This document shows, one piece after another, positions 1 to 58,078 of a stretch of DNA of 64,000 bases (within the stretch, counting starts at the first letter, position 1; each line of letters opens with the position of its first letter). The DNA comes from Eledone cirrhosa (taxonomy: Eukaryota). Position numbers and translations under genes: made by a program. The stretch lies in contig OZ024745.1 of the NCBI GenBank assembly GCA_964016885.1, positions 86,924,001 through 86,988,000 of the forward strand, given 5' to 3'. The notes beneath the pieces were generated by a model that saw nothing but the letters and a program-made list of their open reading frames with translations, was not told the DNA's origin and ran no database searches.

Positions 1-1969
1 GGCTAGAGTGTTAGCGTCGAGAACGGCACTGGACCAGTTCTTCGATGCGAAACACGAAGGCTGCGTGGTCAGAAGCTGGGCCCGAGTGGCGGAGGCGAAA
101 AGTGGCAACAAGTTCACGATTCGGTCTTTGAAAGAACAAAACGGACGTGTGCTACTTGAGCCCAAGCAAATGTGCGCGGTCTTTCAGCAGCAATTTGCGC
201 GACTGTTTGAGCAGAACGACGGCGAGCCGAACAAGGCAATGGACTTTAGTTAATACCTCAACGGCCTGCCGCGTCTCTCGAACATGGACGCCGAGTTCTG
301 CGAAAGACCGATCACGAACACTGAGATACGGGACGCTCTGGGCCGCTGAGGGAAACGCAAGTCACCCGGTCTAGATGGTCTACCCTATGAGTTTTACATA
401 GGCATGCCGGACTTGTTCTCTGGCGTCCTCGAAGCCGTCTACTGCAATTGGCAGCAGAACGTGAGAATTCCCAGTTCTGCAGGAAAGGGTGTAGTAACGC
501 TGATCAGGAAAGACGAGAACAAGGGGGACGAAATTAAGAACTTCAGGCCCATAACTTTGCTCAAAACCTGGTAGGGAAAGCGCAAAAAATGTGCAATCGC
601 GACCAGGTCCATACACGACAACCTCCACCTCATGCGATACATCATAGAGAGGGTGGGTAGTAAACCCGGCTTCGGTGGGGCTCTGATCAATTTGGATCAG
701 TTTAAGGCATTCGATAGGGTCGACCATCGATACTTGGAAACGGTTCTCAAGGCGGCCGGTTTCGGTCCCGTTTTCAGAGGATGGATCGAGGCGATGTACA
801 TCAGCATCTGCTCGAGGGTGAAGGTGAAGGGCTACTTATCGGAGCCGTTCGCAATCATGCGTTCTATTTTACAGGGGTGCCCTCTCTCCTCCATTCTGTA
901 TGTATTGACTCTAGAGCCACTACTGCGGAAATTGGAGCTGTTGCAGGGCATCTCTCTAGAACCGGGACTGCGCAAAGCGGCGTCGGCTTATGCCGACGAC
1001 ATGATGGTAATGGTGTCGAGCACTTCGGAAATCAAGGTGATCGGCAACTTACTGAAAGAATACGAAACGCTGACGGGAGCAAAACTAAACCCGGACAAGT
1101 CTGTCGGTTTGCAACTCGGTACGTGGAGAGGCAAACCGATGACGTCCGACAGCGTCGTTGGACGCTGGACGGACGGACCAGTGAAATTGCTCGGGGTCTG
1201 GTTCGGTCCAGACCGCCAGGTGGAGAAAAACTGGAACGTGGTCATGGCCAAGGTGTTTGCACTCACCCAGAAGTGGGCAGAGTGCAAACTGTACTTGAAA
1301 GGTCGAGCGGAGGTGGACGTGTCTAAGATGTACGCAGGACATTGAAACAGTCCTGCACGCAATTGTACACTTCCCGGGCGTAACCGACCTGTGGAACTAT
1401 GCAGAACAACTTCTGTCGCGTATGGAACAAATCCAGTTGACTGCGGAGTCCATAGTAAGGATCAAACCGCCAGCATCTTTCAAAAACGAAAGAGAGGCGG
1501 TTTTCCTCTGTACAGTGGCTATGGTGAAAGAACTTATATGGTGGACGAGATTGAGAGGACTGAGGACAGATCTCTTTCTCTCCGGGCAACAATTGATTCC
1601 CTTCTTTAAGTATCACTTTAGAAGGAGAATCAGAGTGGAGAGAGAGGCACTACACCCCAGTAAATTTACTGAAAGGTGGGTGAATGAAGCGAAAATGGCC
1701 CGAGTGATTGGGCCTTCTCTGTTTATAAGCCTGTAGGTTGAAGAAGAGAGCAAAAGGAAGAAGGGAACACTTGCACAGCACGCTCCTGGAGTTGAAGTTT
1801 GTTCTATCGACGGGGTATTAAACAACCCATTTGCGGCGCTTCTCCCCTATTGGGGATTTCGATTGTTGTAATTGTTTGTTTTTATATTTTTTACACGACT
1901 GTATGTAAAATCCCTGGTATGTCTTTGTATTGTCCCCTTTTCTTGTGCTCCCTTGTGGCAAATAAAGAA

Positions 1970-2056: not shown

Positions 2057-2273
2057 AGACGTGTGTAACTTCGCGGAGAAGTTTCCGTTAATTTATGTAA
2101 GAAAAAAACGTGAGTTTTTAGTTAAATTTTATATCATTGTGTAACTTGACCCCCGTCTGAACCTTCAGGTGGTGGGTCAACTCATTTTCGCCCCTGCAGG
2201 GGCGGAATATTCATTTGAAAAATTTTTTCTCCATCGAATCTTGGAAAAAATGTTGTAAAGTTTTGATTACGTT

Positions 2274-4193
2274 ATGAACGCTGCGTCCAACGATAATGGT
2301 GGTGGAGAGGCGGTAAGACTACAAAGCTCGCAGTCAACAACGTCTTCTTCACTAGATACTATAGAAATGGAAAGACAAAATGAAAATATAAAAACGAATT
2401 CATATCCAAACAACACAAATGACACCAAACAGTTCAATGACAACAAAAATAGCAGCAACACCAATAATGATGATAAAAGCAACAATGATAAAAGCAACAA
2501 CAAAGAAAAAAATAAAGACAACACCAATAACACCAGCATCAAAGACAACAACAACACCAAGGAAAAGACGAATACTATCAACATCGGTGACAACAAGAAT
2601 AACAACAAGAATAACAACAATAATGACAACACCACCAATACGGATTCCACAAAGAAACCAAAAATCTCCTTTGCAGAGAAAGTTCAAAAGAAGGAAGAAT
2701 TGATATATCTCGACATAACAAATGCCGAACAACTTTTAAAGGACGCTAAGAGATATGTCACTTTCGAAAAAAATGGTGCTTTCAGCATCAATTCTCCGGT
2801 AGAAATTCGCAAGGAAACTGCTCTCAAAACGATAGTTTTTAGGACAGTTTCCAATTCTACCCGAAAACCAGTCCAATTGTCACAGAAAGAAATTGAACTG
2901 GTTTTCAAAAATTCAATGAATGATATTGCATTCATTCAAAGAAGCAAACTTTTTGGGAGTATTTCGGTACTCATGAAGGATCAATTGACGGCCCAAAATT
3001 ACTCTGTGTCGCCAATTGTATCCAACCTGTACACCTTTTTCCCTACATACATGGGAAAAAGGACACAAAAGATCAGAATCACGAGTGTCACACCAAAGGT
3101 GAACATATGGTGGATACTGTGCGGCTTCATCAATTTTGATGAAGACAGAATACTGTCAGTAGGAAAGTCCCCCAGAGATGTATTCAATGGGACTAGCATT
3201 GAAGTTCTGGTGCAAATGAGCCCAGAGCGAATAGCTATGATCCCACAGCGTGTACTCCTGGACGGACTCACCTACATAAACTTTTCGGTTGAGGGTAGGC
3301 GGCCTTCATGTTACCATTGCTTTAGCAGGGGTCACCTGAAGGCTTCCTGTCCTAAATTAATGAACCAAAAAAAGGCTCTTCTGCCAACACCCATCAAAAC
3401 AACACAACCACCAACACCACCACAACAACAACAACACCAACACACAAAAATAACCACAACAAACACAGTCCCACCCAACCCCACTCCACCTAAAACCACT
3501 GCAAAATCACATACAGACACAACAGCTCCCCAAGACATACCCCTCCCCAGTCACACAGACGATACAACAGATGAGGCTATCTCGCCATCACCCAGTGAAG
3601 ACGAGGGAGAACCCCATCGCTCGAAAAGAAAGAAAAGACATCACAAAAGCGATAAACCAGCAAACACTACCACAAACATACAACCACCAACACAAAAAAC
3701 AAAAACATCACAAACAAAACCCCCACCTCCTGAAAACAAAATACCTACAACAAAACGAAAGCACACACAAGAACTACAGACAAAAACAAACACAACACAA
3801 GAAAATTACACTTACACTTACATAAACACTGAAAACAAAACACTAATGGAGACTATCACGAACGACCCTTCGGTGAAAACCGAAGGGAAAACTTTCGCCC
3901 ACTCTATTAAAAATAGCAAAAAACTGAACCTAAATCTGATTAGGGTCCCTATACAAACTTATAGGTCCCTAAAAGAAACATTTCAGAAGGATGTGGGGAA
4001 TTCCTGCGTGAAACCACTCAACCGAGTCCTTCTCAAATGTCTCCCCACCCCAGACACCCCCATCCCACCAGACCCCACCCCACCAAACATCTGCGTCCCC
4101 ACCCCGCCGGAAACCATCACCCATCCAGAAAACCCCTCCAACACCCCCATGGAAATCGTGCGTCCTGGTCCCCAGGAGGCGAAGGGTGAGTGA
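2274..4193 (+). CDS. LINE ORF1, gag-like RNA-binding protein with a CCHC zinc knuckle (639 aa, open)
   Basis: Asn-rich N-terminus, VEGRRPSCYHCFSRGHLKASCP (CX2CX4HX4C), Pro/Thr-rich linker; lies directly upstream of ORF2. Confidence 0.88.
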   Translation: MNAASNDNGGGEAVRLQSSQSTTSSSLDTIEMERQNENIKTNSYPNNTNDTKQFNDNKNSSNTNNDDKSNNDKSNNKEKNKDNTNNTSIKDNNNTKEKTNTINIGDNKNNNKNNNNNDNTTNTDSTKKPKISFAEKVQKKEELIYLDITNAEQLLKDAKRYVTFEKNGAFSINSPVEIRKETALKTIVFRTVSNSTRKPVQLSQKEIELVFKNSMNDIAFIQRSKLFGSISVLMKDQLTAQNYSVSPIVSNLYTFFPTYMGKRTQKIRITSVTPKVNIWWILCGFINFDEDRILSVGKSPRDVFNGTSIEVLVQMSPERIAMIPQRVLLDGLTYINFSVEGRRPSCYHCFSRGHLKASCPKLMNQKKALLPTPIKTTQPPTPPQQQQHQHTKITTTNTVPPNPTPPKTTAKSHTDTTAPQDIPLPSHTDDTTDEAISPSPSEDEGEPHRSKRKKRHHKSDKPANTTTNIQPPTQKTKTSQTKPPPPENKIPTTKRKHTQELQTKTNTTQENYTYTYINTENKTLMETITNDPSVKTEGKTFAHSIKNSKKLNLNLIRVPIQTYRSLKETFQKDVGNSCVKPLNRVLLKCLPTPDTPIPPDPTPPNICVPTPPETITHPENPSNTPMEIVRPGPQEAKGE

Positions 4194-4226
4194 TCTCTTT
4201 TCCTCTTTTAACTTTTCAGCACCAAC

Positions 4227-7200
4227 ATGGCCAATATAAGAGTTGGATGTGTGAACGTACGCGGCCTGGGGATGCCCTGGAAACAGGGCAAACTCGTAAA
4301 CGACGTCAGGTCGCACAGTATGGATGTGGTAGCCATTTGCGAGTCCAGGATCCACGGCGAGCGACAGCTGTCCCCCATCTTCGATGACTTTGAGATCTAC
4401 GCATCTCTCTGTCAACCGGGGGGTGGGGGCGGAGTTGCCGTTTTGCTGCGGAAACACCTGGGCCTTGTAACACAGACGGTACATCTGGACCCGGTGGGTC
4501 GACTGGTGGTCCTAGACGTTGACGGTAGTGAAGGTGGAGCCTTCAGGCTGGTGGCCGCATATGCCCCATCCGGAACACCGCGGCCAGACTTCTTCAAACG
4601 TCTAGAGACTTTTCTGGGAACGTCCCGCTCCTTGCTTTTAGTGAGGGACTGGAATGGGATCCTAGATGCACGTTGGGACTATGTGGGAGCATGTCCCGAA
4701 AAAGGGTGGCGTAACAGCCTCAAACAGTTAATTGATCGATTTGACCTGGCCGATAGATATCGACTAGATTTTCCGACTGTGCCACTGTGGACGTGGACTA
4801 ATCGCTGCGGAACATCTAGATCATACCTAGATAGGGTTCTAGTTAGAAATAAGGATAGGGACATGTTAAGATGTCCACAAATGTTCATGGTTGCCTATTC
4901 AGATCACAAACTAGTGACCTGCATGGCCAACCTTGATAGAACCCATAGACAAGGACCCGATTACTGGAAGCTGAACTTGTCGTTACTGACAAGCAAAGCC
5001 TACAGTAGACGGATTAGCACTTTAGTTAAACAGCACTTGACAGGGGCCATTGTCAACAACAGATGGTGGTACTCTCTCAAGAGGGCAGTTAGATTAGACT
5101 CGATAGTTTTTAGTAAAGAATTAGCGTTAGATAGAAATAGAACCGAGAAGGAACTGGTAGATAAAGTAGAAGAGGCTATTAGAAGTGGCAACGTAGCCAG
5201 CGTGCTAGCAATGAGAACGGCCTTGGACCAGTTCTTCAACGAAAAGCACGAGGGCTGCGTTGTCAGAAGCAAAATACGTGCTCTGGGAAACGAGGGAGCC
5301 AAAATTGTTAGCTGGGCCCGAGTGACGGAGGTAAACATGGCAACAAGTCCACGATTCGGTCTTTGAAGGACCAAAACGGACGCGTGATACGTGAGCCGAA
5401 GCAAATGTGTGCGGCTTTTCAGCGGCAATTTGCTCAGCTGTTCGGGGGTGGGGCCGGGAGAGGCTATGAATTTCGGTCCATACCTCGACGGCCTACCGCG
5501 ACTCTCGGACAGCGAGGCAAAGTTCTGCGAAAAGCCGATTTCAATCGCAATCCCGACAAGATCCATATACGACAACCTCCACCTCATGCGATACATCATA
5601 GAGAGGGTAGGGTGTAAACCCGGCTTCGTTGGGGCCCTGATCAACTTGGATCAGTCTAAGGCTTTCGATAGGGTTGACCATCGTTACCTGGATGCGGTGC
5701 TCGAGGCGTTAGGCTTCGGACCCCTGTTCAGGGGCTGGATTGCTGCAATGCACAACAGCAACATCTACTCAAGGGTCAAGGTGAACGGCTACCTCTCGGA
5801 GCCGTTCCATATTACGCGATCCATTCGACAGGGATGCCCTCTCTCCTCCCTTCTGTACGTACTGAATCTCGAGCCACTACTGCGGAAGTTGGAGCTATTG
5901 CAGAGCATCCCTCTGGAACCGGGACTGCGGAAAGCGGCGTGGGCCTATGCCGACGACGTGACAGTAATGGTGTCGAGCACCTCGCAAATCGAGGAAGTCG
6001 CCACCTTACTGAAGGAATACGAAAGTTTCACAGGAGCGAAGCTGAACCGGGACAAGTCCATCGGTTTGCAACTAGGATCGTGGAGAGGCAAACCGATGCC
6101 TTCCGATGGCGTCGCCGGACGCTGGACGGAAGGACCGGTAAAGCTGCTCGGGGTCTGGTTTGGTCCGGACCTCCAGGTGGAGAAGAACTGGAACGCAGTG
6201 ACGGCCAAGGTGTTTGCACTCACCCAGAAGTGGGCTGAGTGCAAACTATCCTTGAAAGGTCGAGCGGAGGTGGCGAACACTTTTATAGCGTCCGCCATCT
6301 ACTACCGCTTGACCGTCGTGCCTTGTCCAGCCAAAACGCTCGCCAAAATGGAACGCGTGCTCTCCCAATTCCTTTGGAAGAAGCGGGCTCCTTTGGTGAG
6401 AAGATCCATCTGCTGCCAACACCCTTCTAACGGAGGGCTGGGGATGCCGTGGTTGACGATGCGCAAACAAGCGCTCAGGCTGCGGCATCTCTACGTATTC
6501 CTCACCGGACAACCGGTGTGGTCCTCGTTCGTGAGGCGAGCCTTCCCACGACTCGTCTCGCTGACCGAGCTGCAGTCCTGGGTCAAGCAAAGACCGAGGA
6601 AAATGGGCGACTGGCACATTGAATGTGCTCAGGCGCTCACAGCCCTCTGGCAGGCGGACCCGGCGATCAGTGGAGACTCCACTTCGTCATTCTATAGAGG
6701 GTTGATCCGCAGCAAGTGCGACGACGCGCTCGGTGAAACTCTAGGCGTAGAGGAAGATGAACTGGACAGTCTGTTCGGTAGGACCTTCCGCCCGGGACCG
6801 ATGGACAACTTCCAAAAGTCCCTGGCCTGGCAGTGCTACCGAGGAGCTCTACCAGTTCGAGACAAGCTCTACAGACATGGGCGCCCGGGCAGGGACCCTG
6901 CAAAAAATTCTGGCCGAGGTGCGTGCGAGACGAAGAAACCGTCGCGCACGCATTCATACACTGCCCGGGCGTCACTGACCTGTGGGGCTATGTGGAACGA
7001 CTATTGTCGCGGGTGGGACCAATCCAGTTGACCACCGCGTCCATTGTCATGATCAAACCGCCACCCTCCTTCAAAAACGAAGGAGAGGCGGTTTACCTTT
7101 GTGTGATAGCTATGGCGAAAGAGGTTGTATGGTGGACAAGGTTGAAAGGGCTGAGGTCAGACACCTTTCATCCGGCCAACAACTGATTCTTTTTTTCAAA

Positions 7201-7326
7201 TACCACTTTGGAAGAAGAATCAGGATGGAGAGAGAGGTGCTGTACCCCAGCAAGTTTTATGAAAGGTGGGTGAAAGTGGCGAGAATGGCCCGAGTGAATG
7301 GGCCTTCTCTCTATATCAGCCTGTAG
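4227..7326 (+). pseudogene. Tx1 ORF2 (AP endonuclease + reverse transcriptase), frameshifted and internally deleted
   Basis: APE motifs NVRGL, AICES, YAP, DWN, SYLDR, SDH; RT motifs LDQSKAFDRVDH, RQGCPLS, YADD; split into 4227-5366, 5391-7031, 6833-7186 and 6982-7326; ~0.3 kb missing near 5540 relative to the 28.5-kb and 34.4-kb copies. Confidence 0.92.
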
Positions 7327-7566
7327 GTTGAGGAAACGGAGGAGGAGAGGAAAGGAGTACAAACTCTTCGTACTCCTGGAGATGAGGGTTGCACATTTTT
7401 TTCGGGGGTATGTGTTACCCATATAAACTGTCTCCCCCTATTGGGGAAAATCGATTAACTTTTTAAATTCCATTTGTGATAACATTTTACACGTTTTTAT
7501 TGTATGTAAACTTCCCCCTTTGTATTTGTCCCCTTCTTTTGTGCCCCTGTGGCTAATAAAGAAACA

Positions 7567-17439: not shown

Positions 17440-18931
17440 GTTCTTTGAGTCTCAGTCATTGATGTTATTTAACTGGAAAGTTTGTTGAAATGAATATCAA
17501 GCTGCTACCTGCAGCCTCAGATATTCAGGATGTATCGGAGGGTTCTTGCTGTTCCCAGCAAGCATGCCTTTTGAAGTGTTCCAAGAAGCGGGGTTGGACT
17601 AATCTTCTTTAACCATCCCTGAAAACTCTTTGAGATAGTACCTAGTGCGCCTATGACAATCGGGACCACTTTGACTTTATGGCAGTTCCAAATCCTTTTT
17701 ACCTCCCACTTTAAGTCCTGGTATCGGTTAATTTTCACCCTCTCCTTCCCTTGCACTCTCGTGTCGAATGGGCAGGCCACATCCACAATCAGGCACGATC
17801 TTTTTTCCTTGTCCAAAACCACGAGGTCAGGTCTATTGTGTTCCAGTTTCTTATCTGTCTGTATCCTAAAATCCCACAGCACCTTCACCTGATCGTTTTC
17901 TATCACCGACTTTGGCTTATGCTCATACCACTTCTCAGAATGTTGTAAATTGTTTAGTTTGCATAGGTGCCAGTGGATCACCCTGCCCATCACATCATGT
18001 CTCCAGCCTTTATAGTGTGTCTGGGCTAGGTGTTTACACTCGGATACAATGTGAGCCACAGTCTCCCCCCTCTCTCCACAGATCATTCACATTGGGCTAG
18101 CCTCCTCCTTATAAATATGGTGTTTCAGCCACTTCGTTTTGAGAGCCTGCTCTTGCGCAGCCATTAGCATTCCTTCTGTAGCCTTTTTAAGGTCTCCTCT
18201 TTTCAACCAGTTCCATGTCTGTGGATCTCTGAATTCCGTTTTCTCAAAGTAGGTACTATGAAGGGATTTTTAATGAAGGCTGCTCTTTCTCCTTGTTGTT
18301 ATTTCCTCCTTGGAGATCCCCTGGTCTATTGTCCTCTCCTTCAGTACAATTCTGAGCATTGGCTCCTTACTATCAGTCCGGTATTTGTGTAGGTTGTTTT
18401 TCTCCATCTGAACACAGTCCTCTATGCTGATAAGAACTCTTCCACCTTCAGATCTCTTTAAGTAGAGTCTATCGACATCAATCCTCTTGTGGAACATGTT
18501 GTAGATAGTCAATAGCTTCCTAGTCTTCCTATCCATTTCTTTTTGTTCAGCAACATTCCATCTCAGAATTCCCGCACTGTACCTATTAATAGACACAGCT
18601 CGGGAATTTACTGCACTTATGGCATTTCTACTGTTCAGATGTGACTTTAATACTCTCCTTACTCTCCGAATGTATTCAGATCTTATCAATTCCTTCATTT
18701 TTTTGTTCTTGTTGTCATCTGCCTCCAGAACACCCAAATACTTGTATCCTTCTTCAGTGTCAATTTCCTTTATCATCTCACCTGTTGGTACCTGGATTCC
18801 GTTGCTTCTGCTCAATTTACCGTTCTTCATCACAAGGACTCCACACTTACTAATACCAAATTGCATACATATATCATTGCTGAAAATACGGACAGTGTCA
18901 ACAAGCACATCCAACTCCTTCTGACTCTTCC
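17440..18931 (-). mobile_element. R4/Dong-type RLE LINE, family B, 5'-truncated
   Basis: YKYLGV, RLYLKRSEGGR, zinc finger C..CGERGETVAHIVSEC, RLE motif NRPDLVVLD...IVDVACP...KINRYQDL; 3' end abuts (TAA)n. Confidence 0.88.
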
Positions 18932-19072
18932 CGAGAGAGAGATAGAGATTGCTCATACACATACGCATATTCACACACACATACACACACACACCTATAT
19001 ATGGAGAGAGGAGAAGAAAGTGATAGCGAAGGAAATAATCTTTATCTTATTATTATTATTATTATTATAATC

Positions 19073-19625
19073 CGTGTAGGACGGATCCAGCTATCAGCTC
19101 AGTCCATCGTGAGGATTGCCCGCCCTCCTCCTTTAGCCGGGAAGGGCAGGCAGTTTTTATCTGTCTGGTGGCCATGGCGAAAGAGATAGTTTGGTGGACA
19201 CGTTTGAAAGGGCTGAAGACGAGCACTTACCTCTTCGGTGATGCCCTGATTAACTTTTTCAAATTTCATTTGAAAAGGAATATCAGAGTAGAGAGGTAAG
19301 TGCTCTCTTCCCAGCATTTTGTTGAAAGATGGGTGAGAGAAGCAAGAATGGCCCGTACTCTGAGTACGTATATGTAAATTAAAGGTGGAAAACTGGGAGA
19401 GGGCACTTGCCCTGGTGGTCAGGGTCACTGTGGCCTTTTAATGGGCTTTCTCCACAAATGTCCCTCCGAAGTCTCCCCCCTATTGGGGAATTTTTCATTG
19501 TTATTTTTTTTATTACATCCTCTGTTTTTTTTTACACGCAGAAATGCCCATTAGTACCGTCCTGTATTGTCCTGTACTGTCCTTAATGTCAACTTTATGT
19601 AAACCCTTGTGGTTAATAAAGAAAG

Positions 19626-19626
<1 letters not shown>
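19073..19626 (+). mobile_element. Tx1 3' fragment (same subfamily as 32227-38073)
   Basis: Near-identical to 37508-38073; (ATT)n on both sides. Confidence 0.92.
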
Positions 19627-19661
<35 letters not shown>

Positions 19662-19662
<1 letters not shown>

Positions 19663-24525: not shown

Positions 24526-24616
<91 letters not shown>

Positions 24617-26210: not shown

Positions 26211-26216
26211 TTATTA

Positions 26217-26281
<65 letters not shown>

Positions 26282-26496
26282 GGTTGGTGAAACCACGCTT
26301 CTTATCGCCTCCAGTCTTTTTCAACGTTTTACCTCTTTTTCAACCGTTCTAAACCTTTTATTCAAGTTTTAAATTTGATAAAAGTTTAGAAGAAGTGACC
26401 CACCTAATACAGGGTTTCACTAGTAAATAATACGGCACCCCTTTACGGGGTGTCGTATTCGTATTTGTGTAAAAATACTTTTTGAAAAATTCCAAC

Positions 26497-28496
26497 ATGG
26501 ATAACACAAAAGAGAGAGAGAGCGCTGTCAGACAACACAGAGAGACGGAGACTTTATCAGCATGTCAACAAGACAGCGTTCCAGCGGAGGTAAATATAAA
26601 CGAAAATATTACAAAGGAAAAAAAGATTGTTACAGATTTAAAATTAACAAATATTTCTAACACAAACAACACCAACAATAACACCAACAACATCACCAAC
26701 AACAACACCAAAAATAACAGCGGTAAAGTCGAGAACGCCAATAACAAAAATAACAGCGGTAAGGTCGAGAACGTCAATAACAATGACAATAACAACAGCC
26801 ACAACAACAATAATAGTAGGAACAGTATCAACAAAAACAACAATAATAACAACAGCCACAATAACAGTAACAGCAGCAGCAGTATCAACAAAAACAACAC
26901 CAACAACTGTTCCAGCGAAAAGAACAACAATGACACCGATACCTGTAATAGCGACCTCAGCACCACCAGTAAGACCAATAGCGGCAGCAATAGTGGTGCT
27001 GCTGAAAAAGGGACCACTTCCTTTGCAGGTGTCGCCCGAAATATCGAGACTGTGTTAGTCACAGAGGAGGAGATGGCAGTCGCAAGGGCCATGGTTACAA
27101 GAAGCGCAAATAGAGTTTCCCTGAAACCTCCACCCGATTTTTTCAAGGATCAGCAGCTACGAACGGTGACTTAAGCAAAATCTCACATCGAGTGGAGAGA
27201 GCCACGGAGGCTCAAATCCAAAGGCCTTGGGGTGCGTCTGGGCACGCAAAACCCACATCACCCGAGGCAGAAAGTACGCCACAGTAGACGTACTTTTCGC
27301 CACCCCCCTGGAAGCAAAGTCTCACTCTTTGGAAACCCTAAAGAGTGAGGAGTTAGTCTTGGTGCCCTCCTACTGCGGGCAGAAAATTGTGAGGGTCAAA
27401 GTGACACAGGTCCCACCCGACATGCCCATACCTTGGCTGGCCGCGTCTGTCCTTGTTGGAATTGAGAACAGGGCGACCATGCTGCAAGTAGAAAAAATAG
27501 GGAGAGAGAATTGGTCAGGTATAGGCATGCAAATGCTTATACAAACTGACCAGGAATGTATCGAGGCTATCCCCGATATCATAGACTTTGAGGAAGGACT
27601 CCAACTCCCTATAAGTGTAGAAGGAAGACGGCCAAAATGTTATCTCTGTGGGTCGAAAGGTCACCTCAGGGCCTTTTGCCCGCAGAAGACACCGAAGAGG
27701 GCCCCTCTCCTTCCAATAACTGGTCCGCTGCTACCAAGAGCAGGACAGGCAACAAACGAAGAAGCCCCTTCTACGGTGAGTAGGAGGGCAACGTCCGTAG
27801 CACCCGTACTAAGACCACGGATAACTAAAGCAGCATCATCAGTAGCGGCAACACCAATAGCTACATTGGAAATAGCTACACCAGCAACAGCATTGCCGAA
27901 GAGGGCTCCACTACCACCACCAACAGCCGTGGAGCACATACCCCTCCCAGACGCCACAGAATCCGACATGGAGTTTGAGGCGGGAGTGACGTGGCAAACA
28001 GTCTGCCACAAAAAAACAAAAAACAATAAAACCCTTAGATTCACCCTCCAAAAGCGAAGGCATACAAAGAGGGGTAAAGGCAGCAAGGAAACTTGCAGCA
28101 ACACCACCACAAACACCAACAACGCAAACACGACAAGACACGCACACCAAACAGCAACAAGAAGAAAACGGCAACAAAATCACCCCTCCCCCCAAAAAGT
28201 ACACAGCCATAAAGATAGCAAAAAAAGAACTCATAAAATATATAAAGCAGCATACAGACATCACGGAAAAAAATTACTACACCCCACCAGCACCAAGAAT
28301 TCTCCCGACAAACATAAGCATCATCGAAATCTCATTAGAACAATACAAACCTTTAAAACAAAAACTCCCAAACGCAGTTGGAGACTTCAGAGGGACGGTT
28401 ACCAAGAGGATATACACTGACATCCTCTTGGAAACACCCATGACCAGCGAAAGGGACGATTCTACTGTCCCTTCACCACACGTACAAGGTAAGTGA
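26497..28496 (+). pseudogene. Tx1 ORF1, frameshifted
   Basis: Asn-rich N-terminus, LVPSYCGQ, VEGRRPKCYLCGSKGHLRAFCP; my translation of the last frame ends ...HVQGK*. Confidence 0.85.
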
Positions 28497-28528
28497 CCCT
28501 TTCTCATTTGCCCCATTTCTCATCCAAC

Positions 28529-31500
28529 ATGGCTGTACTCAGAATAGGCAGTATAAATGCACGTGGCCTGGGGTCATCTTGGAAGCAGGGTCACCTGCTC
28601 AATGACCTCAGGTCACTAAACATAGATGTGGTGGCTATCAGTGAAACCAGAATCTCCGAGGCACGGGCCTTCGCACCGATATTCGGCGGCTACGATGTAT
28701 ACGCATCTCCCAGCCGTCCAGGACCGGGGGGAGGGGTTGCCGTCCTTTTTCGGAGAGGCTTGGATCTCGCGATACGGGCTATCTTCCTGGACCCAGAAGG
28801 TAAGTCGGTGGTCCTGGACTTGACCGGCAGCGAAGGCAATGCTTTCAGGCTAGTAGCCGTCTACGCCCCAACAGGGGCAGGACGGTCAGATTTCTTAAGA
28901 CGTCCAGAGACCTTTCTTGGAACGTTCCGCTCTTTAGTCTTAGTGGGCAACTGGAACGGTATCTTGGATGCACGCTGAGATTGTGTGGGGCTAGTGGATA
29001 GGGGAGGAGGGTGCAAGAGCCTCACCAACCTGCTCAGACGTTTTGAACTGTCTGACAGGTATCGACTGGATCACCCGAATATGCCAATATGGACATGGAC
29101 AAACCGCATCGGGTCATCCAGATCGTATCTAGTTAGGGTATTCTGCAGGGAACTAGATAAGGCTAGTATAAGTTGTCCACAATTTAAAATAGTCGACTAC
29201 ACAGACCACAAATTTGTGATCTGTGAGATCGACATAGACAGACTTCATAGACAAAGTCCTGGTTACTGGAAGCTGAACGCGTCTTTCCCGGCGCGCAAGG
29301 CCTACAGAGACCGGATTAGCGTATTAGTTAAGCGGGTGTTGACGGGAGCGGTCGTCAACAACAGGTGGTGGTTCGCCCTGAAAAGCGCAATTAAAGTAGA
29401 GTCGATTAGGTTTAGCAAAGGAGTAGTGATAGAGGAAAATAGAGTAGAGGGAGAGCTAGTCAGAAAGCTAGAAGAGGCGTTTAGAACAGGCATCGCGACC
29501 GACGTGCTTGCGGCGAGATTGGCACACGACCAATTCTTCAACGCAAAACACGAAGGCTGCGTTGTCAGAGCTAGATCGCGTGCTCTGAAACACGAGGGGA
29601 CAAAAGCCGTCCAATGGGCTCGGGTGGCAGAGGCGCGACGTGGCATTAAAGCCACAATTCGGTCTTTGTCTGACCAAAACGGGTGCGTGATGCTCGAACC
29701 CGAGCGGATATGTGAAGCTTTTCAGCAGCACTTTGCTGAACTGTTCGGGAGCGGCGGCGGCCCGGATCGGGACATGGACTTCTGTGCATACCTCGACGGA
29801 CTGCCTCGGCTCTCGACGACCGCAGCACAGTGTTGCGAAAAGCCAATAACAGCCGGTGAAATACGGGAAGCGATGGCTAACTGCACAAGAGGTAAATCAC
29901 CAGGTTTAGATGGTCTGCCCTACGAGCTTTATGCATTTATGCCAGACTTGTTCGGTGACCTCTTGGCAGACGTCTACTGCAACTGGCAGCAGAACGGGAG
30001 CATTTCCAGTTTTGTGAGCAGTGGCGCATCTGAGAAAGACCCGAACAAGGGGGATGTTATTGATAATTTCAGGCCCATAACTCTGCTAAACGCAGAGTTC
30101 AAGATTTTGGCCAAGGTGTTAGCAACGAAGTTGGCACTTGTCGTCAAGGGTCTAGTGGGAGAGGCGCAGATATGCGCAATCCCGGACAGATCCATACACG
30201 ACAACCTCCACTTCATGCGATACATCATAGAGAGGGTGGTTAAGGAACTTGGCAAGGGTGGGGCCCTGATCAACTTGGATCAATCCAAAGCATTCGATAG
30301 GGTCGACCATCGGTACCTGGCGGCGGTCCTCGAGGCAGCCGGTTTCGGGCCCGTTTTCAGGCGTTGGATCGCAGCAATGTACAGCGACACCTGCTCAGTT
30401 GTGAGGGTGAACGGTCACCTGTCGCAGCCGTTCAGCATCATGCGCTCAGTCCGCCAGGGTTGTCCCCTCTCGTCCCTCTTGTACGTATTGGCTCTCGAGC
30501 CGTTACTGCACAAACTGGGGCGATGAGGGGCGTCCCACGTGAACTAGGATGCGGGAAATCCGAGTCGGCTTACGCTGACGACGTCACCGTAGTGGTGTCG
30601 AGAACCAGACACGTCCAGATGCTCGGCACCGCTCTCAAGGAATACGAAACGGTGACAGGAGCAAAGATAAACCAGGAAAAGTCGGTGGGCTTGCAGCTAG
30701 GCACCTGGAGAGGCAAGTCCATGCCGTCCGACAGCGTCGTGGGGCGTTGGACGGACGGACCGGTTAAATTGCTCGGGGTCTGGTTCGGACCGGACCTCCA
30801 GATGGAGAAAAACTGGAACGAGGTGACGAGGAGGGTGGCCTCCCTCACCCAGAAATGGGCTGAGAGGAAGCTGTCCCTGAAAGGCCGGGCGGAAGGGGCG
30901 AATGCGTACATCCCATCCGTCATCTGCTACCACCTCACCGTCGTCCCTTGCTCCAGCCCAACTCACACCAAAATGGAGCGCCTCCTCTTCCGCTTTTTGT
31001 GGAAGGGACGCGCTCCCATGGTCAGACGATCCATCTGCTGTCAACACCCGTTGCGTGGAGGACTGGGCGTGCCATGGCTGATGATGCGCAAACATGCGCT
31101 GAGGCTGCGACATCTCTGGTGCTTCCTTGATGGTGAACGGGTGTGGTCGCCGTTCGCCAGGCACATTTTCCCCCAGCTCGTCTCCTTGACGGAGCTGCAG
31201 TCCTGGGTCAGAAAAAGACCGAGGGATAGCGCTTGGAAACTGGAATGTCTCCAGGCGCTCACTGCCCTCTCCCAGTTGGGCACCAGTATCGGTGGAACAT
31301 CTACCTCGGCGTTCTATAGAGGACTAGTGGAGGGGAAGAGCGACGACGTTCTCGGAGAGATCCTGGGCGTCGAAGAAGATCAGCTGCTTGCTCTCTTCCG
31401 GAGAACTTTCAGCCCGGGGCCTATGGATAACTTCCAAAAATCCCTGGCCTGGCAGTGCTACCGGGGAGCGTTGCCGGTTCGAGATAAGCTCTACAGGCAC

Positions 31501-31923
31501 GGAAGTGCCGTCAGCCGAGCCTGTCCGAGTTGCGCGCATAGCAACGAAACCGTTGTGCACGCACTCGTTCAGTGCCCAAGCATTGCTGACATGTGGAGCT
31601 ATGTCGAACAGTTGCTGTCACGTGTGTGACTGATCCGGTTGTCGACTGAGTCCATTGTGCAGATGGTCTCGCCGTCTTCCTTTGAGGAGGAACGGCAGGC
31701 GGTTTTCATCTGCCTGGTGGCCATGGCGAAAGAGATTGTGTGGTGGACAAGTTTAAAAGGATTAAAGACAAATACTTTCCTCTTCGGCGAATCCCTGATT
31801 AACTTTTTCAAGTTTCACTTGAAGAGGAAAATCAGGGTGGAGAGGCAAGTGCTGCTTTCTAGCAAGTTTGTTGAAAGGTGGGTGAATGTAGCGAGAATGG
31901 TCCGAGTGAATATACGTCTGTAG
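28529..31923 (+). pseudogene. Tx1 ORF2 (APE + RT), disrupted
   Basis: NARGL, ISETR, YAP, KSPGLDGLPYE, NFRPITLLN, KAFDRVDH, YADD, CPSC...H..C. Confidence 0.92.
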
Positions 31924-32194
31924 TTTGAGGGATGGAAAAATTGAGTAGTCAGGGTGGCCATGGTCTTTTGTGTGGTTTTCGCCACGAGTAACCCTCGGAG
32001 GTTTCCCCCTTATTGGGGAATTTTTCATTGTTTCAATTTTCATTTTATTGTTTATATATATATATATGTTTTATGTCCTTTTTCTTTTCTTATATAAATA
32101 ATAAAAATATTTACACGCACAAAACCCACATCGTACCGTCCTGTTCCGTCTGTGATGTTTTTCTTGATGTCAGCCCTTGTGGCCAATAAAGAAA

Positions 32195-32226
<32 letters not shown>

Positions 32227-32436
32227 GGCGACCTACGTAGTAAATCGTATCATCGTGAGCTCCGCAAAGGTTTGTTATTTCCATTTGTTAAAAATTGCCA
32301 TTTATGAAAATTTTTTATTGTTAACTATATATAAGCGCACATACATTGTTTTCCGAAAAGGACATCCAAAAAGATTGGGGCCTTGAGCCCAAAATTTAAA
32401 CTTTTATGATTATCAAAAAATTTCTTTGAAAAAAAA

Positions 32437-34398
32437 ATGGCTAATTCACCTCTGCACCAAGCAGCTGAAAGCCTTCCTCACAAATTAACACCTCACACCG
32501 ACACCACCATTGTAAATGATACTACGTTTGCCAACACAAACAATTTAAGCACTAGCAATATTTTAAATTTGTCTCAGGCAGACATTCATTTCCCACCATT
32601 ACCAATGACTGCAGGTGTTAAAGCCGCCGCCACCACCACCACCGCAACAACCACCACCCCACCACCACCGCGACAACAGAAACAAAAGGAAAAAATAAAT
32701 CAACTCGCGATGTCGAAATATTTTCAAACAAAATGGACTCTTCCAAACCGAACTCCACTGACGTCACCACCACCACAACTGAAACTAAAATTAATAATAA
32801 CAAAAATAACGATAGCAACAACAACAACAATGACATTAAAAAACCACCCTGAGTTTTGCCAGAGTAGCAAAACAGTGCGAAGCATTTACGGTAACTCAAG
32901 AGGAATTGGAAAATGCCAAAAAAATGGTAAAGAAAGATGGGTACAGGGTCAGCCTCACCCCCCCACCTAATAAAATGGAGCATCGGCGCCTATGCACCGT
33001 GTCGTATCGAACAATAAATGTAAAATCGCGCCGAGTGGAACGGGCATCCGAGTCCCAAATCCAAAATGCTCTGGGACATGTGTGGGCAAGAAAAACCCAC
33101 ATCAGACCTGGGCAGAGTATGGAACCGTGGACGTGTTCTTTGAAAGATCAGAGGAGGCTAGAGAACACTCCATGGCCCCATTAAGAAGTGACGACTTCAC
33201 ACTCGTCCCAAGCTATTGTGGCCAGAGACTCGTAAAGATCAGGGTGACCCACGTTCCACCGGCCATCGAAATTCCCTGGCTAATAGCGGCCGTCCTCGCC
33301 GGAATCGAAGCCAACACAAAGATAATAGCAATAGCAAAAAGAAAAGCAGGAGAACTGGTCCGGATCTGGGATGGAGCTCCTGATCCAAGCGGACCAAAAA
33401 AGCATTGAGGAGATCCCAGAGGTAATAGACCTCACTGACGGCAGCCACCTCACCGTAATTGTCGAAGGCAGAAGGCCTAGATGTGTCGTTTGTGGTGAAG
33501 GAACCCACCTAAGGGCTTTCTGCCCTCAGGCTAAAAGGTTGAGGCCACCTCTCCTACCCACCCCAGTGACTCAACCATCAACACCACCAGTAGCAGAGAT
33601 GGCAACAACAACTGTAGCAGCAACAACAGAAGCAACTATAACAGCAACAACCCCAGCAACTAGCAAAACCAACACCACCACCACCCAACGCTTCAGAACT
33701 AGCACCAGCGCCTACACCATCCACCACGCCACAACCAAAACTAACGCCTGTGGAGGATTTTCCACTCCCCAGCCTATCACAACTGGAGACAGATTGTGAC
33801 GACGAGGAGTGGGAAACGGTAACAGGAAAAAAGAAAAAAAGAAACCAAAAAAGAAAAAAATTCTCTTCCTGCCCCCTCCAAAAACAAAATACAGAGGGAA
33901 ACAGATAAATTAACAAACAAAAAAGTTAGGACAGATATGCCACCATCCACACCAGCATCACCAACCCCATCACCCCAAACACCAACACCATCACCATCAT
34001 TAACCCCAACACCACCATCACCTACACCACAAAAGTCACCAAAATGCGAAACAGAAACAAGCCCACAACAAACGCAAACAAAACAAAACAACCAAAACTA
34101 TACACACTACACAGCATTAAATTTGAACAACAACCAATTATTACACTACATCCAACACAACACCAGCATCACAGAAAAAAACTACACAACAACCCAAAAA
34201 TTCACACCACCACCACACATACAAATCACTCGCATCACACAGAAAACGTACATGACACTAAAACAAAAATTTCCGAAAGACATCGGAGACTTCCGACAAG
34301 CACTCTCCAGGAGGATTTATAAGGACATCCTTCCTGAGGAGGCCACACGCAGTGAAAAGGATGGAAAAACCGTCCTTCCTCTACGAGAAGTAAGGTAA
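32437..34398 (+). pseudogene. Tx1 ORF1, multiple frameshifts
   Basis: LVPSYCGQ and VEGRRPRCVVCGEGTHLRAFCP in fragments. Confidence 0.83.
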
Positions 34399-34432
34399 GT
34401 GGTCTTTCCCATCTTTTCCACTCCATTTCAAC

Positions 34433-37400
34433 ATGACCTCACTCAGAATAGGTAGCATAAATGCGCGTGGCTTGGGGTCGTCATGGAAGCAGGGCCACCT
34501 GCTTAACGACCTCAGGTCACTAAACATAGATGTAGTGGGCATCAGCGAGACCAGAATCTCCGAAGCACGGGCCTTCGCACCGATCTTCGGCGGCTACGGG
34601 ATCGGGGGGAGGAGTTGCTGTGCTTTTTCGGAGAGGTTTGGATCTTGCCATACGGGCCATCTTCCTGGACCCAGAAGGTAAGTTGGTGGTGCTGGACGTG
34701 ACCAGCGGAGACGGGCAAGCTTTCAGGCTAGTGGCCGTCTATGCCCCGACAGGAGCAGGGCGGCCTGATTTCTTCCGGCGTCTGGAGACCTTTCTTGGAA
34801 CGTCCCGCTCTTTAGTGTTAGTGGGCGACTGGAACGGGATCTTAGATGCACGCTGGGACTGTGTGGGATTAGCGGATAGGGGTGGAGGGTGCAAGAGCCT
34901 CACCAACCTGCTCAGGCGTTTTGAACTGTCTGACAGGTACCGATTGGATTTCCCGAATGTGCCAATGTGGACTTGGACAAATCGCATAGGGTCATCCAGA
35001 TCATATCTAGATAGAGTATTTTGTAAAGAAATAGATAGGTCTAGCATAGGCTGTCCACAATTCAAGATAGTCAGCTACACGGACCTCAAATTCGTGATCT
35101 GTGTACTTGATTTAGATAGGCTTCATAGACGAGGACCCGGCTACTGGAAGCTAAACGCGTCCTTACCAGCGCGCAAGGCCTACAGAGACCGCATTAGCGA
35201 ACTAGTTAAGCGGGCGTTGACGGGGGCCATCGTCAACAACAAGTGGTGGTTTGCTCTGAAAAGAGCAATTAGAATAGAGTCCATTAGGTTTAGTAAGGCT
35301 TTAGCAATAGAGAAAAATAGAGCAGAGGGAGAATTAGTTAGAAAATTAGACAAGGCGCTTAGCAAAGGCATCGCGACCGACGTGCTTGCGGCGAAATTGG
35401 CCCTTGACAAATTCTTCAATGCAAAGCACAAAGGCTGCGTTGTCAGAGCTAGGGTGCGTGCTCTCAGACACGAGGGGACGAAAGCCGTTCAATCTGCCCG
35501 AGTTGCGGGGGCGCATCGTGGCAACAAAGCCAAGATCCGGTCTTTGGTGGACCACGACGGGCGCATGCTACTCGATCCCGGGAAAATGTGTGAAGCTTTT
35601 CAGCGACACTTCGCTCAGTTGTTCGGGGGCAGCAGCGGGCCGGATCGAGGGATGGACTTTAGTGTCTACCTCGACGGACTGCCGCGGCTCTCGGCCACTA
35701 AGGCGGAGTGTTACGAAAAGCTGATAACAGCCTCTGAAGTACGGGAGGCAATGACTAGCTGCACAAGGGGTAAATCGCTTGGTTTGGATGATCTGCCCTA
35801 TGAACTTTACGTACAGATGCCAGACTTGTTCGGAGGCCTCTTGGCGGACGTCTACTGCAACTGGCAACAGAACGGGAGAATTCCCAGCTCTGTGAGCCGA
35901 GGAGCGGTGGCGCTGCTGAGAAAGGATCCGAACAATGGGGATAACATAGATAATTTTAGGCCCATAACTATTCTAAACACAGAGTTCAAGATTTTGGCCA
36001 AGGTGCTAGCAAAGAGGTTGGCGCTTGTCGTTGGTGGTCTGGTGGGAGAGGCGCAGACATGCGCCATTCCCGACAGATCCATCCACGACAACCTCCACCA
36101 CATGCGATACATCGTAGAGAGGGTAGCTATGGAACCTGGCACGGGTGGGTCTTTGATCAATTTAGATCAGTCGAAAGCCTTCTATAGGGTCGACCATCGT
36201 TACCTAGCGGCAGTCCTGAGGGCGGCTGGCTTTGGTCCCGTCTTCAGAGGCTGGATCGCTGCCATGCACAGCGACATCTGCTCTGTAGTGAGAGTGAACG
36301 GTCACCTTTCGGAACCGTTCAACATCATGCACTCGGTCCGCCAAGGATGTCAGCTCTCGTCCCTATTGTACGTATTGACTCTCGAGCCATTACTGGAAAA
36401 ACTGGAGACGTTGAGGGGGTCCCGCGAGAACTAGGATGCGGAAGATCCGTGTCAGCATATGCGGACGATGTCACCGTAGTGGTGTCGAACGCCAAACACA
36501 TCGAGGCGATCGGCACTACACTAGGAGAATACGAAGCGGTGAAAGGAGCAATCATCAACCAGGAAAAGTCAGTGGGCCTGCAGCTCGGCACCTGGAGAGG
36601 CAGGTCCATGCCGTCCAACAGCGTCGTCGGGCGCTGGACGGACGGACCGGTTAAATTGCTAGGGGTCTGGTTCGGTCCAGACCTCCAGACGGACAAAAAC
36701 TGGGACGAGGTGACGAGCAGGGTGGCTTCTCTCACCCAGAAATGGGCCGAGAGGAAGCTATCCCTGAAAGGTTGAGCGGAGGTGGCTAACGCGCACATCG
36801 CGTCCGTCATCTACTAACGCCTGACCGTCTTACCTTGTCCTAAGCCCCGCCTGACTCCACTGGAGCGTTTGCTCTTTCGCTTTTTGTGGAAGGGACGCGC
36901 TCCGATGGTCAGGCGGTCCATCTGCTGTCAACACCCGCTACGTGGAGGGCTGGGAATGCCGTGGCTAATGATGCGCAGACACTCGCTCAGGCTACGACAT
37001 CTCCACCTCTTCCTCGACGGTGATCAGGTGTGGTCGCCGTTTGCTAGACACGTCTTTCCCCAGCTCGTCTCCTTGGCGGAGCTGCAGTCCTGGGTCAAGC
37101 GAAGGCCGAGAGGGAGCGCTTGGAGACTGGAATGTCTTCAGGCGCTCACAGCCCTCGACCAATCGGGCAATGTGATCGGTGGAAACTCCACCTTGGCGTT
37201 CTATAGAGGATTAGTGGAGGGGAAGAGCGACGACGTACTTGGAGAAACTCTAGGCGTCGACGAAAATCAACTAGCCAATCTCTTCGGAAGGACTTTCGGG
37301 CCGGGGCCTATGGACAACTTTCAGAAATCCCTGGCCTGGCAGTGCTACCGGGGAGCTTTGCCAGTTCGGGATAAACTCTACAGGCATGGAGGTGCCGTCA

Positions 37401-37825
37401 GCCGGGCATGTCCGAGATGCGCACAGGGCGACGAAACCGTCCTGCACGTACTCGTCCAGTGTCCGAGCATTGCTGACTTGTGGGTTTATGTCGAACACCT
37501 GCTGTCACGTGTAGGACGGATCCAGCTATCAGCTGAGTCCATCGTGAGGATTGCCCCGCCCTCTTCCTTTTGCCGGGAAGGGCAGGCACTTTTTATCTGT
37601 CTGGTGGCCATGGCGAAAGAGATAGTATGGTGGACACGTTTGAAAGGGCTGAAGACGAGCACTTACCTCTTCGGTGATGCCCTGATTAACTTTTTCAAAT
37701 TTCATTTGAAAAGGAAAATCAGGGTAGAGAGGGAAGTGCTCTCTTCCCAGCATTTTGTTGAAAGATGGGTGAAAGAAGCAAGTATGGCCCGAATGAATGG
37801 GCCTTCTCTGAGTATGTGTCTGTAA
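34433..37825 (+). pseudogene. Tx1 ORF2 (APE + RT), disrupted
   Basis: NARGL, GDWN, SYLDR, NFRPITILN, YADD, CPRC...H..C. Confidence 0.92.
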
Positions 37826-38081
37826 ATTAAAGGTGGAAAACTGGGAGAGGGCACTTGCCCTGGTGGTCAGGGTCACTGTGGTCTTTTAATGGGCTTTCTC
37901 CACAAATGTCCCTCCGAAGTCTCCCCCTATTGGGGAATTTTTCATTGTTATTTTTTGTTACATCCTCTGTTTTTGTTTTTACACGCAGAAATGCCCATTT
38001 GTACCGTCCTGTATTGTCCTGCACTGTCCTTAATGTCTACTTTATGTAAACCCTTGTGGTTAATAAAGAAATCATTATTAT

Positions 38082-38716
38082 GTGCATTACTGACTTGTGG
38101 AGTTATGTCGAACAGCTACTGTCGCGTGTGGAACGAATCCAGTTATCGGCCGAGTCCATAGTGAAGATCGAGCCGCCACCTTCCTTAGGTCAGGAAGAGC
38201 AGGACATTTTCCTCTGTCTGGTGGCAGTTGCGAAAGAGATTATATGGTGGACCAGGTTGAAAGGACTAAAGACAGACACTTTTCTCTTCGGCCAATCCCT
38301 CATCAACTTCTTCAAGTTTCACCTGGAAAGGAGGGTGAGGGTGGAGAGAGAAGTGCTGCCCCCCAGTACATTTGCTAAAAGGTGGGTGAATGTGGCAAGA
38401 ATGGCTCGTGTGAATGGGCCTACTCTGACCATGCGCCTATAGGCTGGCTAACTTGAGGAGAGGGGTGCTCTCCTGGGTGCCCTAGAAGCGCAGGCTGGTT
38501 CAGGATTGGTGGGGTACCCGAATCACCCCAGGGTCGTCCACCCCCTATCGGGGAATTTATTTTGTTATATTTTGCATAGTTTATTTTATATTTTATATTT
38601 TCATTGTTAAATTAGTCTTGCCATTGTGCACTTTTACTCGACCTTATTGTAAACCCCCACTGTCCCTGTCTTTGTATTGTCCCCTACATGTCGGCCCTTG
38701 TGGCTAATAAATGAAA

Positions 38717-38718
<2 letters not shown>
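38082..38718 (+). mobile_element. Tx1 3' fragment, another subfamily, in (ATT)n
   Basis: ITDLWSYVEQLLSRV...WWTRLKGL...RWVNVARM; distinct 3' UTR ending AATAAATGAAATC. Confidence 0.9.
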
Positions 38719-57425: not shown

Positions 57426-58027
57426 ATATATATATATATAGTAATAATAATACATTTGAAGATGGGTTACACGGGGTGTTATTATAGGTTTTAAACCCAA
57501 ATTTATCCTGTTTGTTGTCTGCTTTTCGCGGATTATCGAAATAAAAGGCACGCCAACGCAAGCTTTTAATGAACGCGTCTGTTTTCTGTATCAGGAGTTT
57601 TAGGTATGTTTTCCTGCTTGGTACGGGTATGTTCTTTGTAGAAATATTCAGATGTTGTTTCTGCATGATGAATATAAGTCAATAGAGTGCTCAACCGAGG
57701 GAGCCAAATAGTAATAATAATAAATTTGAAGACTAAAATCCAAAGAGGGCTCGATAAGGATAAATATATATCAAATATATAAGAACCGTAGAGCAAATAT
57801 TTATTAAAATAACAGATTAAAGTTTAAGCAAAGAGTCGCTGCTTTCACCCTTAACGGGATGTTGTTTCTGCATGATGAATATAAGTCAATAGAGTGCTCA
57901 ACCGAGGGAGCCAAATAGTAATAATAATAAATTTGAAGACTAAAATCCAAAGAGGGCTCGATAAGGATAAATATATATCAAATATATAAGAACCGTAGAG
58001 CAAATATTTATTAAAATAACAGATTAA

Positions 58028-58078
58028 AGTTTAAGCAAAGAGTCGCTGCTTTCACCCTTAACGGGATCTTCTGAAACT
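58028..58078 (-). ncRNA. Hammerhead-like motif, CAGAAGA core, sense to Naiad B
   Basis: aguuu-CAGAAGA-uccc.guua.agggu-GAAA-gcag.cgacucu.uugc-UU-aaacu. Confidence 0.65.

Follow-up and report, generated by a model that had tools for sequence, protein, structure and literature searches.

Tx1-like elements in the window

We analysed a stretch of 64,000 nucleotides (nt) from Eledone cirrhosa (assembly GCA_964016885.1, contig OZ024745.1, positions 86,924,001 to 86,988,000 of the forward strand), here called the window, whose plus strand carries a series of Tx1-like long interspersed nuclear elements (LINEs) with a first and a second open reading frame (ORF1, ORF2). Each of the three full-length copies has a consensus 5' splice site (donor) at its ORF1 stop. 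An earlier note on this DNA had drawn attention to these sites and proposed that ORF2 may be an intron, removed to give an ORF1-only mRNA, or that U1 binding controls processing. The host genome comprises 3.0 Gb in 1796 contigs, and the elements of the window are the following.

1..1969, plus strand: E0, 3' part only, with the junction upstream of the window
2057..7566, plus strand: E1, full-length Tx1-like LINE copy flanked by (TATC)n tracts, with an ORF2 that lacks about 330 bp present in intact family copies
2274..4193, plus strand: E1 ORF1, low-complexity, one CCHC knuckle under the Pfam cut-off, C-terminus K-G-E-stop
4194..4229, plus strand: E1 linker, pyrimidine-rich, with CAAC, the ORF2 ATG at 4227 and an AG at 4218-4219; predicted 3' hairpin arm over the donor
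4227..7326, plus strand: E1 ORF2, with APE endonuclease, reverse transcriptase (RT) and zf-RVT, broken in the window copy; the putative intron
26282..32196, plus strand: E2, full-length, between (ATT)n tracts; ORF2 ATG at 28529, stop ending at 31923
32227..38072, plus strand: E3, full-length, inside the (ATT)n tail of E2; ORF2 ATG at 34433, TAA stop ending at 37825 with no AG
38084..38718, plus strand: E4, 5'-truncated copy

Eight families were compared, where E1-E3 are full-length in the window, E0 and E4 were reached via their 3' fragments, E5 and E6 as neighbours and E7 by pattern search. E0, E4, E5 and E6 were picked without sight of their junctions and E7 by the pattern; donor-less families could exist beyond this set. 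ORF2 of the intact E1 copies (loci L098, L101-L103) encodes 1145 amino acids and contains the domains of the L1/Tx1 group (PF03372, PF00078 and PF13966 in Pfam), and its closest solved structure is human L1 ORF2p (E 6.5e-52). A separate ORF1 with a CCHC knuckle is a Tx1 trait; here the CCHC pattern is visible, with Pfam zf-CCHC below the cut-off. We call the elements Tx1-like on their features; no named Tx1 sequence stood among the ORF2 search matches.

A consensus donor is conserved at the ORF1 stop

The three donors of the window are listed with a slash at the putative splice point, after which positions count from +1.

4183..4192, plus strand: E1 donor, AGG/GTGAGTG, phase 1, just ahead of the ORF1 stop
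28486..28495, plus strand: E2 donor, AAG/GTAAGTG, phase 1, with a linker predicted to pair with the whole donor
34392..34401, plus strand: E3 donor, AAG/GTAAGTG, phase 2, overlapping the TAA stop

Inspection of the junctions bears out the earlier description. The GT lies at 4186 (AGG/GTGAGTGA), 28489 (AAG/GTAAGTGA) and 34395 (AAG/GTAAGTGG), respectively 41, 40 and 38 nt before the ORF2 ATG, CAACATG is present in all three, and among E1-E3 only the first element has an AG in its linker. The motif was found in 30/30, 30/30 and 30/30 best-matching copies of E1, E2 and E3, a sample biased by its choice for likeness, in which one E3 copy is changed at -2 and one is offset by a base.

Loss of the motif in other families, which the earlier note had named as contrary evidence, is not observed: a donor of the form RAG or AGG followed by GTRAGT stands at the ORF1 end in 8/8 families. 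E0 carries AAG/GTAAGTG in phase 2 in 23/25 ORF2 starts read (the others have one point change and one deletion), and E4 carries GAG/GTAAGTA in phase 0 in 10/10 ORF2 starts, the rest of its 20 loci being truncated or belonging to other families. The donor is present in the one full copy each of E5 and E6, and the E1-like E7 has AAG/GTGAGTG, probably in phase 2 given the tail it has in common with E0. An E2-like ninth family (L295) has lost the junction from its sequence and was not counted.

The phase of the donor relative to ORF1 is 1 in E1 and E2, 2 in E0, E3, E5 and E6, and 0 in E4, where ORF1 extends 9 codons past the GT. The deviating phase of the third window motif, for which the earlier note had allowed a frameshift in that copy, is thus a family-level property, since the ORF1 frame is open in phase 2 in E3 copies. 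An ORF2 tree of seven families, ((E2,E3),E4),(E5,(E0,(E1,E6))), has support on all four inner branches, and parsimony makes phase 2 ancestral and calls for three independent slips of one base, each directly ahead of the motif. Insertion in microsatellites was found in all seven, with E0, E1, E5 and E6 in (TATC)n and E2, E3 and E4 in (ATT)n; this split matches the two sides of the tree.

Donor positions -1, +1, +2, +4, +5 and +6 are invariant in 7/7 families and three more are kept in 6/7, with 0/27 invariant upstream. Among ORF2 four-fold sites of the same seven families, 53/227 (23%) are invariant and 90/227 are kept in at least six, with pairwise identities of 0.50-0.72. By our own arithmetic, the product over the six positions that the ancestral stop does not force is about 5e-4. 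The sole fixed change within +1 to +6 is A to G at +3 (E1, E7), which U1 tolerates. In 45.6 kb of sense sequence from eight family representatives RG/GTRAGT occurs 12 times, 8 of them at the junction, giving a background of about one per 11 kb, and a simple U1-pairing score places the junction site at rank 1 to 3 among the 280-332 GT sites of each element. A second, equally perfect AG/GTAAGT lies inside the ORF2 endonuclease region of E2 (28798) and E3 (34676), in Glu-Gly-Lys codons, and is absent from the other families. In distant LINEs, a donor-like motif was found in 0/15 loci within 110 nt before the ORF2 start, these being the 15 of 33 metagenome relatives that include that start. In a test for a putative donor-less sub-lineage of E3, derived sites were shared only slightly more often within mutant classes (3.26 versus 2.06 and 2.22 versus 1.73).

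Because it recurs in 8/8 families and three phases, is conserved above neutral sites and is absent from distant LINEs, the donor motif is, as judged from sequence comparison, a real, selected and lineage-specific RNA-level signal matching the U1 consensus. The RNA-level constraint suspected by the earlier note is strengthened by the same three observations.

A predicted hairpin, candidate acceptors and a second donor

Folding predictions pair the donor -1 G in 8/8 families and the +1 G at a probability of 0.8 or more, with the linker pyrimidine tract as partner. The predicted E2 stem has 9 bp and covers the whole donor, and positions +4 to +6 are predicted to be unpaired in four families and paired variously in the rest. 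Each family's own ORF1 tail and linker are modestly more stable together than swapped pairs, in that 456-728 of 40320 permutations over eight families do as well (p 0.011-0.018); with the six distinct tails the figures are 31-73 of 720 (p 0.04-0.10). The predicted cost of opening the donor is 5-12 kcal/mol.

Two sites are candidates for the acceptor.

7303..7331, plus strand: candidate acceptor at the E1 ORF2 stop, a CTGTAG whose last base is 7326, then the start of the 3' untranslated region (UTR)
4616..4641, plus strand: second acceptor candidate in E1, TTAG at 4638-4641 in the endonuclease region; the homologous AGs of the other full-length copies end at 28943 and 34821

The ORF2 ends read as the earlier note gave them, CTGTAG at 1736, 7326 and 31923, CTATAG at 38442 and CTGTAA at 37825. 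Its pyrimidine-rich stretch ahead of the stop is only moderate, at rank 5 to 12 of the 105-131 YAG sites per element. The ORF2 stop is a YAG in 7/8 families and has the second-highest pyrimidine content among the 36 YAG columns that seven or more families share, which leaves its proposed role as acceptor plausible; selection for it is not demonstrable, and the AG is absent in E3. In four of seven families the reading frame would close soon after the hypothetical junction, within 0 codons in E1, E2 and E6 and within 2 in E4. In the sisters E1 and E6 both intron ends differ by a single base, in matching register, which is suggestive only. The TTAG lies about 455 nt past the donor in 8/8 families and has the highest pyrimidine content of the 36 columns; its column is the only all-TTA one of 64 all-Leu columns, with this rare Leu codon kept across a Val/Ala change. 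Neither candidate exceeds neutral expectation by itself.

Donor-like sequences also occur near the 5' end.

2107..2117, plus strand: donor-like site in the E1 5' UTR, AAC/GTGAGT, shifted relative to E0, E5 and E6

In E0, E5 and E6 a G/GTAAGT lies about 25-35 nt from the 5' end and is followed about 67-69 nt later by TTTGTAG (L285:620-705; 5' ends of L292 and L293), an arrangement that resembles a short 5' UTR intron. E3 has a weak GTTTGT there, and E2 and E4 are without a clear site. A search for E0 copies spliced at the 5'-end donor found 0, the number of copies searched not being on record. A GC-rich inverted repeat 40-90 nt before the ORF1 start, in 7/7 aligned families with differing sequences (in the window at 2182-2195, 26435-26453 and 32376-32393), is likely a conserved 5' UTR hairpin.

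ORF2 as a putative facultative intron

Our tentative preference is for an attenuated donor through which a minority of transcripts would lose ORF2, by analogy with the retrotransposons copia and EVD. U1 would bind the donor at the last ORF1 codons, the predicted linker hairpin would partly mask it so that most RNA stays full-length, and splicing to the ORF2-stop AG, the presumed main acceptor, would yield an ORF1-only mRNA that would raise ORF1p over ORF2p. We prefer this reading because the donor marks the ORF1 end exactly, always lies before the stop and drifts in phase, and because copia and EVD offer precedents. Since the splice point always precedes the ORF1 stop, the spliced RNA would terminate translation in its last exon and so escape nonsense decay in any phase, and an acceptor that no ORF follows would allow such free drift in phase. 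The fullest form of the idea, in which the entire ORF2, between the last codon of ORF1 and its own stop codon, is a facultative, hairpin-tuned intron that sets the ORF1p:ORF2p ratio where re-initiation alone would otherwise do so, a copia solution re-evolved in a non-LTR (long terminal repeat) element whose cis preference leaves no ORF1-only copies, is speculative and, we judge, somewhat doubtful.

Several results weigh against removal of ORF2 by splicing, beginning at the acceptor. Retention of TAG at the ORF2 stop lies within the neutral range, G being kept in at least 6/7 families at 21/53 two-fold A/G sites, and the codons leading up to the stop show only background invariance at their third positions (5/20). 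E3 has a TAA stop and has lost the AG, yet is widespread; E0, E1 and E6 carry another AG 7 nt upstream of the candidate acceptor; and the hypothetical junction would add unrelated tails of 27 codons in E0 and 7 codons in E5. At the donor, the predicted masking appears mostly compositional: shuffled linkers give nearly equal opening costs except in E2, masking beyond composition is clear only there (p 0.01; combined 0.03 for eight families and 0.08-0.10 for six), and sequence-specific support is weak.

Further counter-evidence comes from the genome itself, in which the processed copies joining the ORF1 end to the 3' UTR that the earlier note had suggested looking for were not found. Search patterns consisted of the exon end plus a base excluding the intron, so that roughly one in four possible acceptors escapes any given single-base pattern, and they covered E0, E1, E2, E3, E5 and E7, with E4 and E6 left out. 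For E1, the exon end joined to the 3' UTR gave 0 matches, and the 100 of 311 copies listed were all unspliced, 98 with an intact GTGAGT. For E2, 0/10 were spliced (7 mutants and 3 unrelated repeats). For E3, 0/36 were spliced among the copies read of 54, the other 18 being point mutants per the listing, and a second pattern returned 46/46 unspliced copies; E3 copies with the exon end number about 400 or more, an estimate based on some 40 substitutions at +1 and a rate of change at G sites of 0.10. Among E0, E5 and E7, 0/27 had the junction. Copying in trans is weak for L1. An ORF1-only RNA would need such copying. The blank argues against abundant germline splicing and not against a minor fraction. 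By comparison, about 2% of human L1 copies, 131 of 6609, are spliced, and these encode ORF2 in cis (PMC5860796). As a short spliced RNA with a full 3' tail should sometimes be copied in trans, abundant germline splicing is unlikely.

Two candidate copies were rejected. A 1.7-kb deletion in E3 (L207:1516) runs from donor +3 to just past a CAG in the RT, two bases off, and is not a canonical splice. At L145:400-590 an ORF2 end with 50 nt of E5-type 3' UTR is joined to an E0 ORF1 tail with donor and ORF2; the join lies at a short shared word, which marks a chimera. Joints in contig alignments were also inspected, with contigs of X4, X1, X5 and X6 aligned to an intact E1 copy and, in a second comparison, contigs of X4 aligned to 28150-38715. 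Of the 15 joints listed per comparison (194 and 32 more lay beyond the listing), none started at a donor or read GT..AG, and contigs of X4 ran on across the linkers of E1, E2 and E3; the six runs are of unrecorded kind and none is listed as RNA, so this result counts neither way.

Alternative explanations

U1 might instead bind the donor with splicing rare or irrelevant, shielding the 6-kb transcript, which is A-rich and has no introns, against premature cleavage and polyadenylation or aiding elongation, with the 5' UTR donor as the first U1 site. This accounts together for conservation, phase independence, the lack of processed copies and the loss of the E3 AG; donors near the 5' end exist in E0, E5 and E6 and, shifted, in E1, although none is clear in E2 and E4. 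The motif A[AT]TAAA occurs 140-362 nt upstream of the donor in 5/7 families, and the EVD donor protects its transcript besides splicing (PMC5580714). Poly(A) signals are, however, common in the A-rich ORF1, so that this nearness is unremarkable, and none lies within 1 kb upstream in E1 and E5 or within 1.5 kb downstream in E0, E1, E3, E5 and E6. Nor does protection by U1 give a reason for a site at the ORF1 stop. It fits the negative results better than ORF2 splicing does and the position worse, and we hold it to be a serious contender, on the unlikely side but close behind ORF2 splicing. U1 binding itself, the common core of these two leading explanations and of the short-intron variant below, is probable.

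A translation element seems improbable as the source of the motif. In such a case a hairpin whose loop holds the ORF1 stop, the pyrimidine tract and the CAAC-ATG would drive termination and re-initiation at ORF2, and the likeness to a donor would be a by-product of the stop plus G and of G-C stem pairs. The TRA at +2 to +4 is the ancestral stop, +3 is only ever A or G, the -1 and +1 G are predicted to be paired, own tail-linker pairs fold more stably than swaps, and the CAAC and ATG context is conserved. Against this, the motif kept its place in E1, E2 and E4 when the stop moved, four families leave +4 to +6 unpaired and the others pair them in differing ways, and the E2 stem, the only clear case of masking beyond composition, covers the whole donor, which fits the hiding of a splice site.

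An EVD-like short intron, in which the donor would be joined to the conserved endonuclease-region acceptor about 455 nt downstream, is very unlikely in our estimation. Its TTAG is present throughout, with the top pyrimidine rank and the sole all-TTA column, but chance alone should produce about one all-TTA column, and the acceptor was found post hoc. Its product would vary with phase, from an in-frame fusion of ORF1 to an endonuclease-truncated ORF2 (E1, E2) to early stops (E0, E3, E4, E7), no nearby poly(A) signal is present in 5/8 families, and the copy patterns of E2, E3 and E0/E5/E7 covered the junction and found none.

Chance and inheritance, with an ancestral Arg-stop context that was donor-like and has yet to decay, are already disfavoured and carry little probability. 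All families share a common ancestor, the phase shifts are slips of a single base, two families tolerate a second perfect donor in ORF2, and four-fold identity is still 0.50-0.72; yet donor conservation is far above that of neutral sites, the motif background is about one per 11 kb, and the only fixed change at +1 to +6 is the U1-tolerated one at +3.

A micro-intron over the linker that fuses ORF1 to full ORF2 is largely refuted and scarcely credible: E1 and E4 have a linker AG and E3 would be in frame with an AG 14 nt into ORF2, but 5/7 linkers have no AG, frames disagree among families, and such an RNA would copy itself in cis, yet 46/46 E3 copies without G at +1 retain the linker. HUSH evasion was set aside because protection there is independent of a 5' splice site (PMC8770142), as was ratchet-point (recursive) splicing, as there is no pyrimidine tract before the donor.

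Comparison with known systems

In LINEs, where studied, the excess of ORF1p over ORF2p has been attributed to weak re-initiation on one bicistronic RNA. LINE splice sites have been regarded as harmful leftovers (PMC5860796). In Drosophila copia, splicing out an intron over the whole catalytic region yields an RNA for GAG only (Yoshioka 1990, cited in PMC5580714). The putative intron described here likewise spans the catalytic region and leaves an RNA for the structural protein alone; copia, however, is an LTR element with one ORF and demonstrated splicing, whereas here a two-ORF non-LTR element has its donor at a real ORF1 stop and splicing is inferred. Arabidopsis EVD, with the shGAG RNAs of plant Ty1/Copia elements, has a conserved U1 site where the structural gene ends, with a donor better kept than the acceptor, and U1 also blocks early termination there (PMC5580714). 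The E families likewise end their structural ORF with a conserved donor of the U1 consensus (8/8), better kept than its candidate acceptor, but EVD has a short intron over the protease and early polyadenylation, and no matching poly(A) signal was found in the E families. The element may thus work like copia or EVD without being a member of their kind, as it is non-LTR with two ORFs in place of a single gag-pol ORF.

The human L1 donor lies in the 5' UTR, where it is kept as part of a RUNX3 site, and splicing from it removes 5' UTR or ORF1 and was judged harmful (PMC5860796); the products are known as SpIREs and SpORF2 (PMC5860796, PMC2896524). Both cases concern a LINE with a conserved donor for which structural masking is proposed, and the L1 site corresponds to the 5' UTR donor of E0, E5 and E6. 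In contrast, the E-family donor stands at the ORF1 end, and SpIRE-type processed copies were not found in E0, E1, E2, E3 and E5. In murine leukemia virus, a hairpin attenuates the 5' splice site and limits U1 access so that unspliced RNA persists (PMC2794156); that system uses an upstream stem-loop and an imperfect donor, unlike the perfect donor and predicted local hairpin here. Kibi and Koshi are Tx1-clade LINEs that insert into microsatellites (PMC4494074). The E families share such targets and differ in their repeat units, (TATC)n and (ATT)n, and in their head-to-tail trains; the accessible part of that paper mentions no inter-ORF donor.

A LINE whose ORF1 stop carries a conserved donor was not found in the literature, most subscription papers and the Repbase notes lying outside the search. 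New here are the predicted linker hairpin over the donor, the second donor in some 5' UTRs and the second conserved acceptor candidate. A perfect donor kept through three frame shifts in eight successful families suggests that U1 binding helps the lineage. Either outcome, stoichiometry set by splicing or U1 recruited to finish the transcript, would be new for LINEs within the literature searched. Host transcripts, too, could be captured by these strong donors, thousands of which lie in microsatellite arrays. Young intact copies are present (L098, L101-L103, L188).

Relatives and other features of the window

An ORF2 protein search returned 75 proteins, including a group (P0002-P0037) at 33-40% identity, from assemblies whose contigs are long, that forms the nearest outside relatives. 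Protein searches found no relatives of ORF1, which were sought for spliced C-termini; a metagenome scan with a five-family alignment and a viral scan gave no matches. Octopus vulgaris has 13 recently active L1-Tx1 families (PMC13282606).

Copies of the families are nested head to tail, one within the tail of another, both in the window (26282-38718) and elsewhere (G000 C2:208038970-208045136). An inverted repeat, CCCC-TAT-[TC]-GGGG, occurs in all five 3' UTRs (1855, 7437, 32007, 37924 and 38545) and is a candidate RT recognition stem. On the minus strand, 17517-26301 holds several copies of another LINE type with one long ORF, an RT and (TAA)n tails. Typed by eye and Pfam RT only, it has the look of an element with a restriction-like endonuclease, and one copy is split by an E3 3' fragment (19073-19624). 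Lastly, an exact 207-bp tandem repeat in two copies occupies 57651-58067, possibly an assembly duplication.

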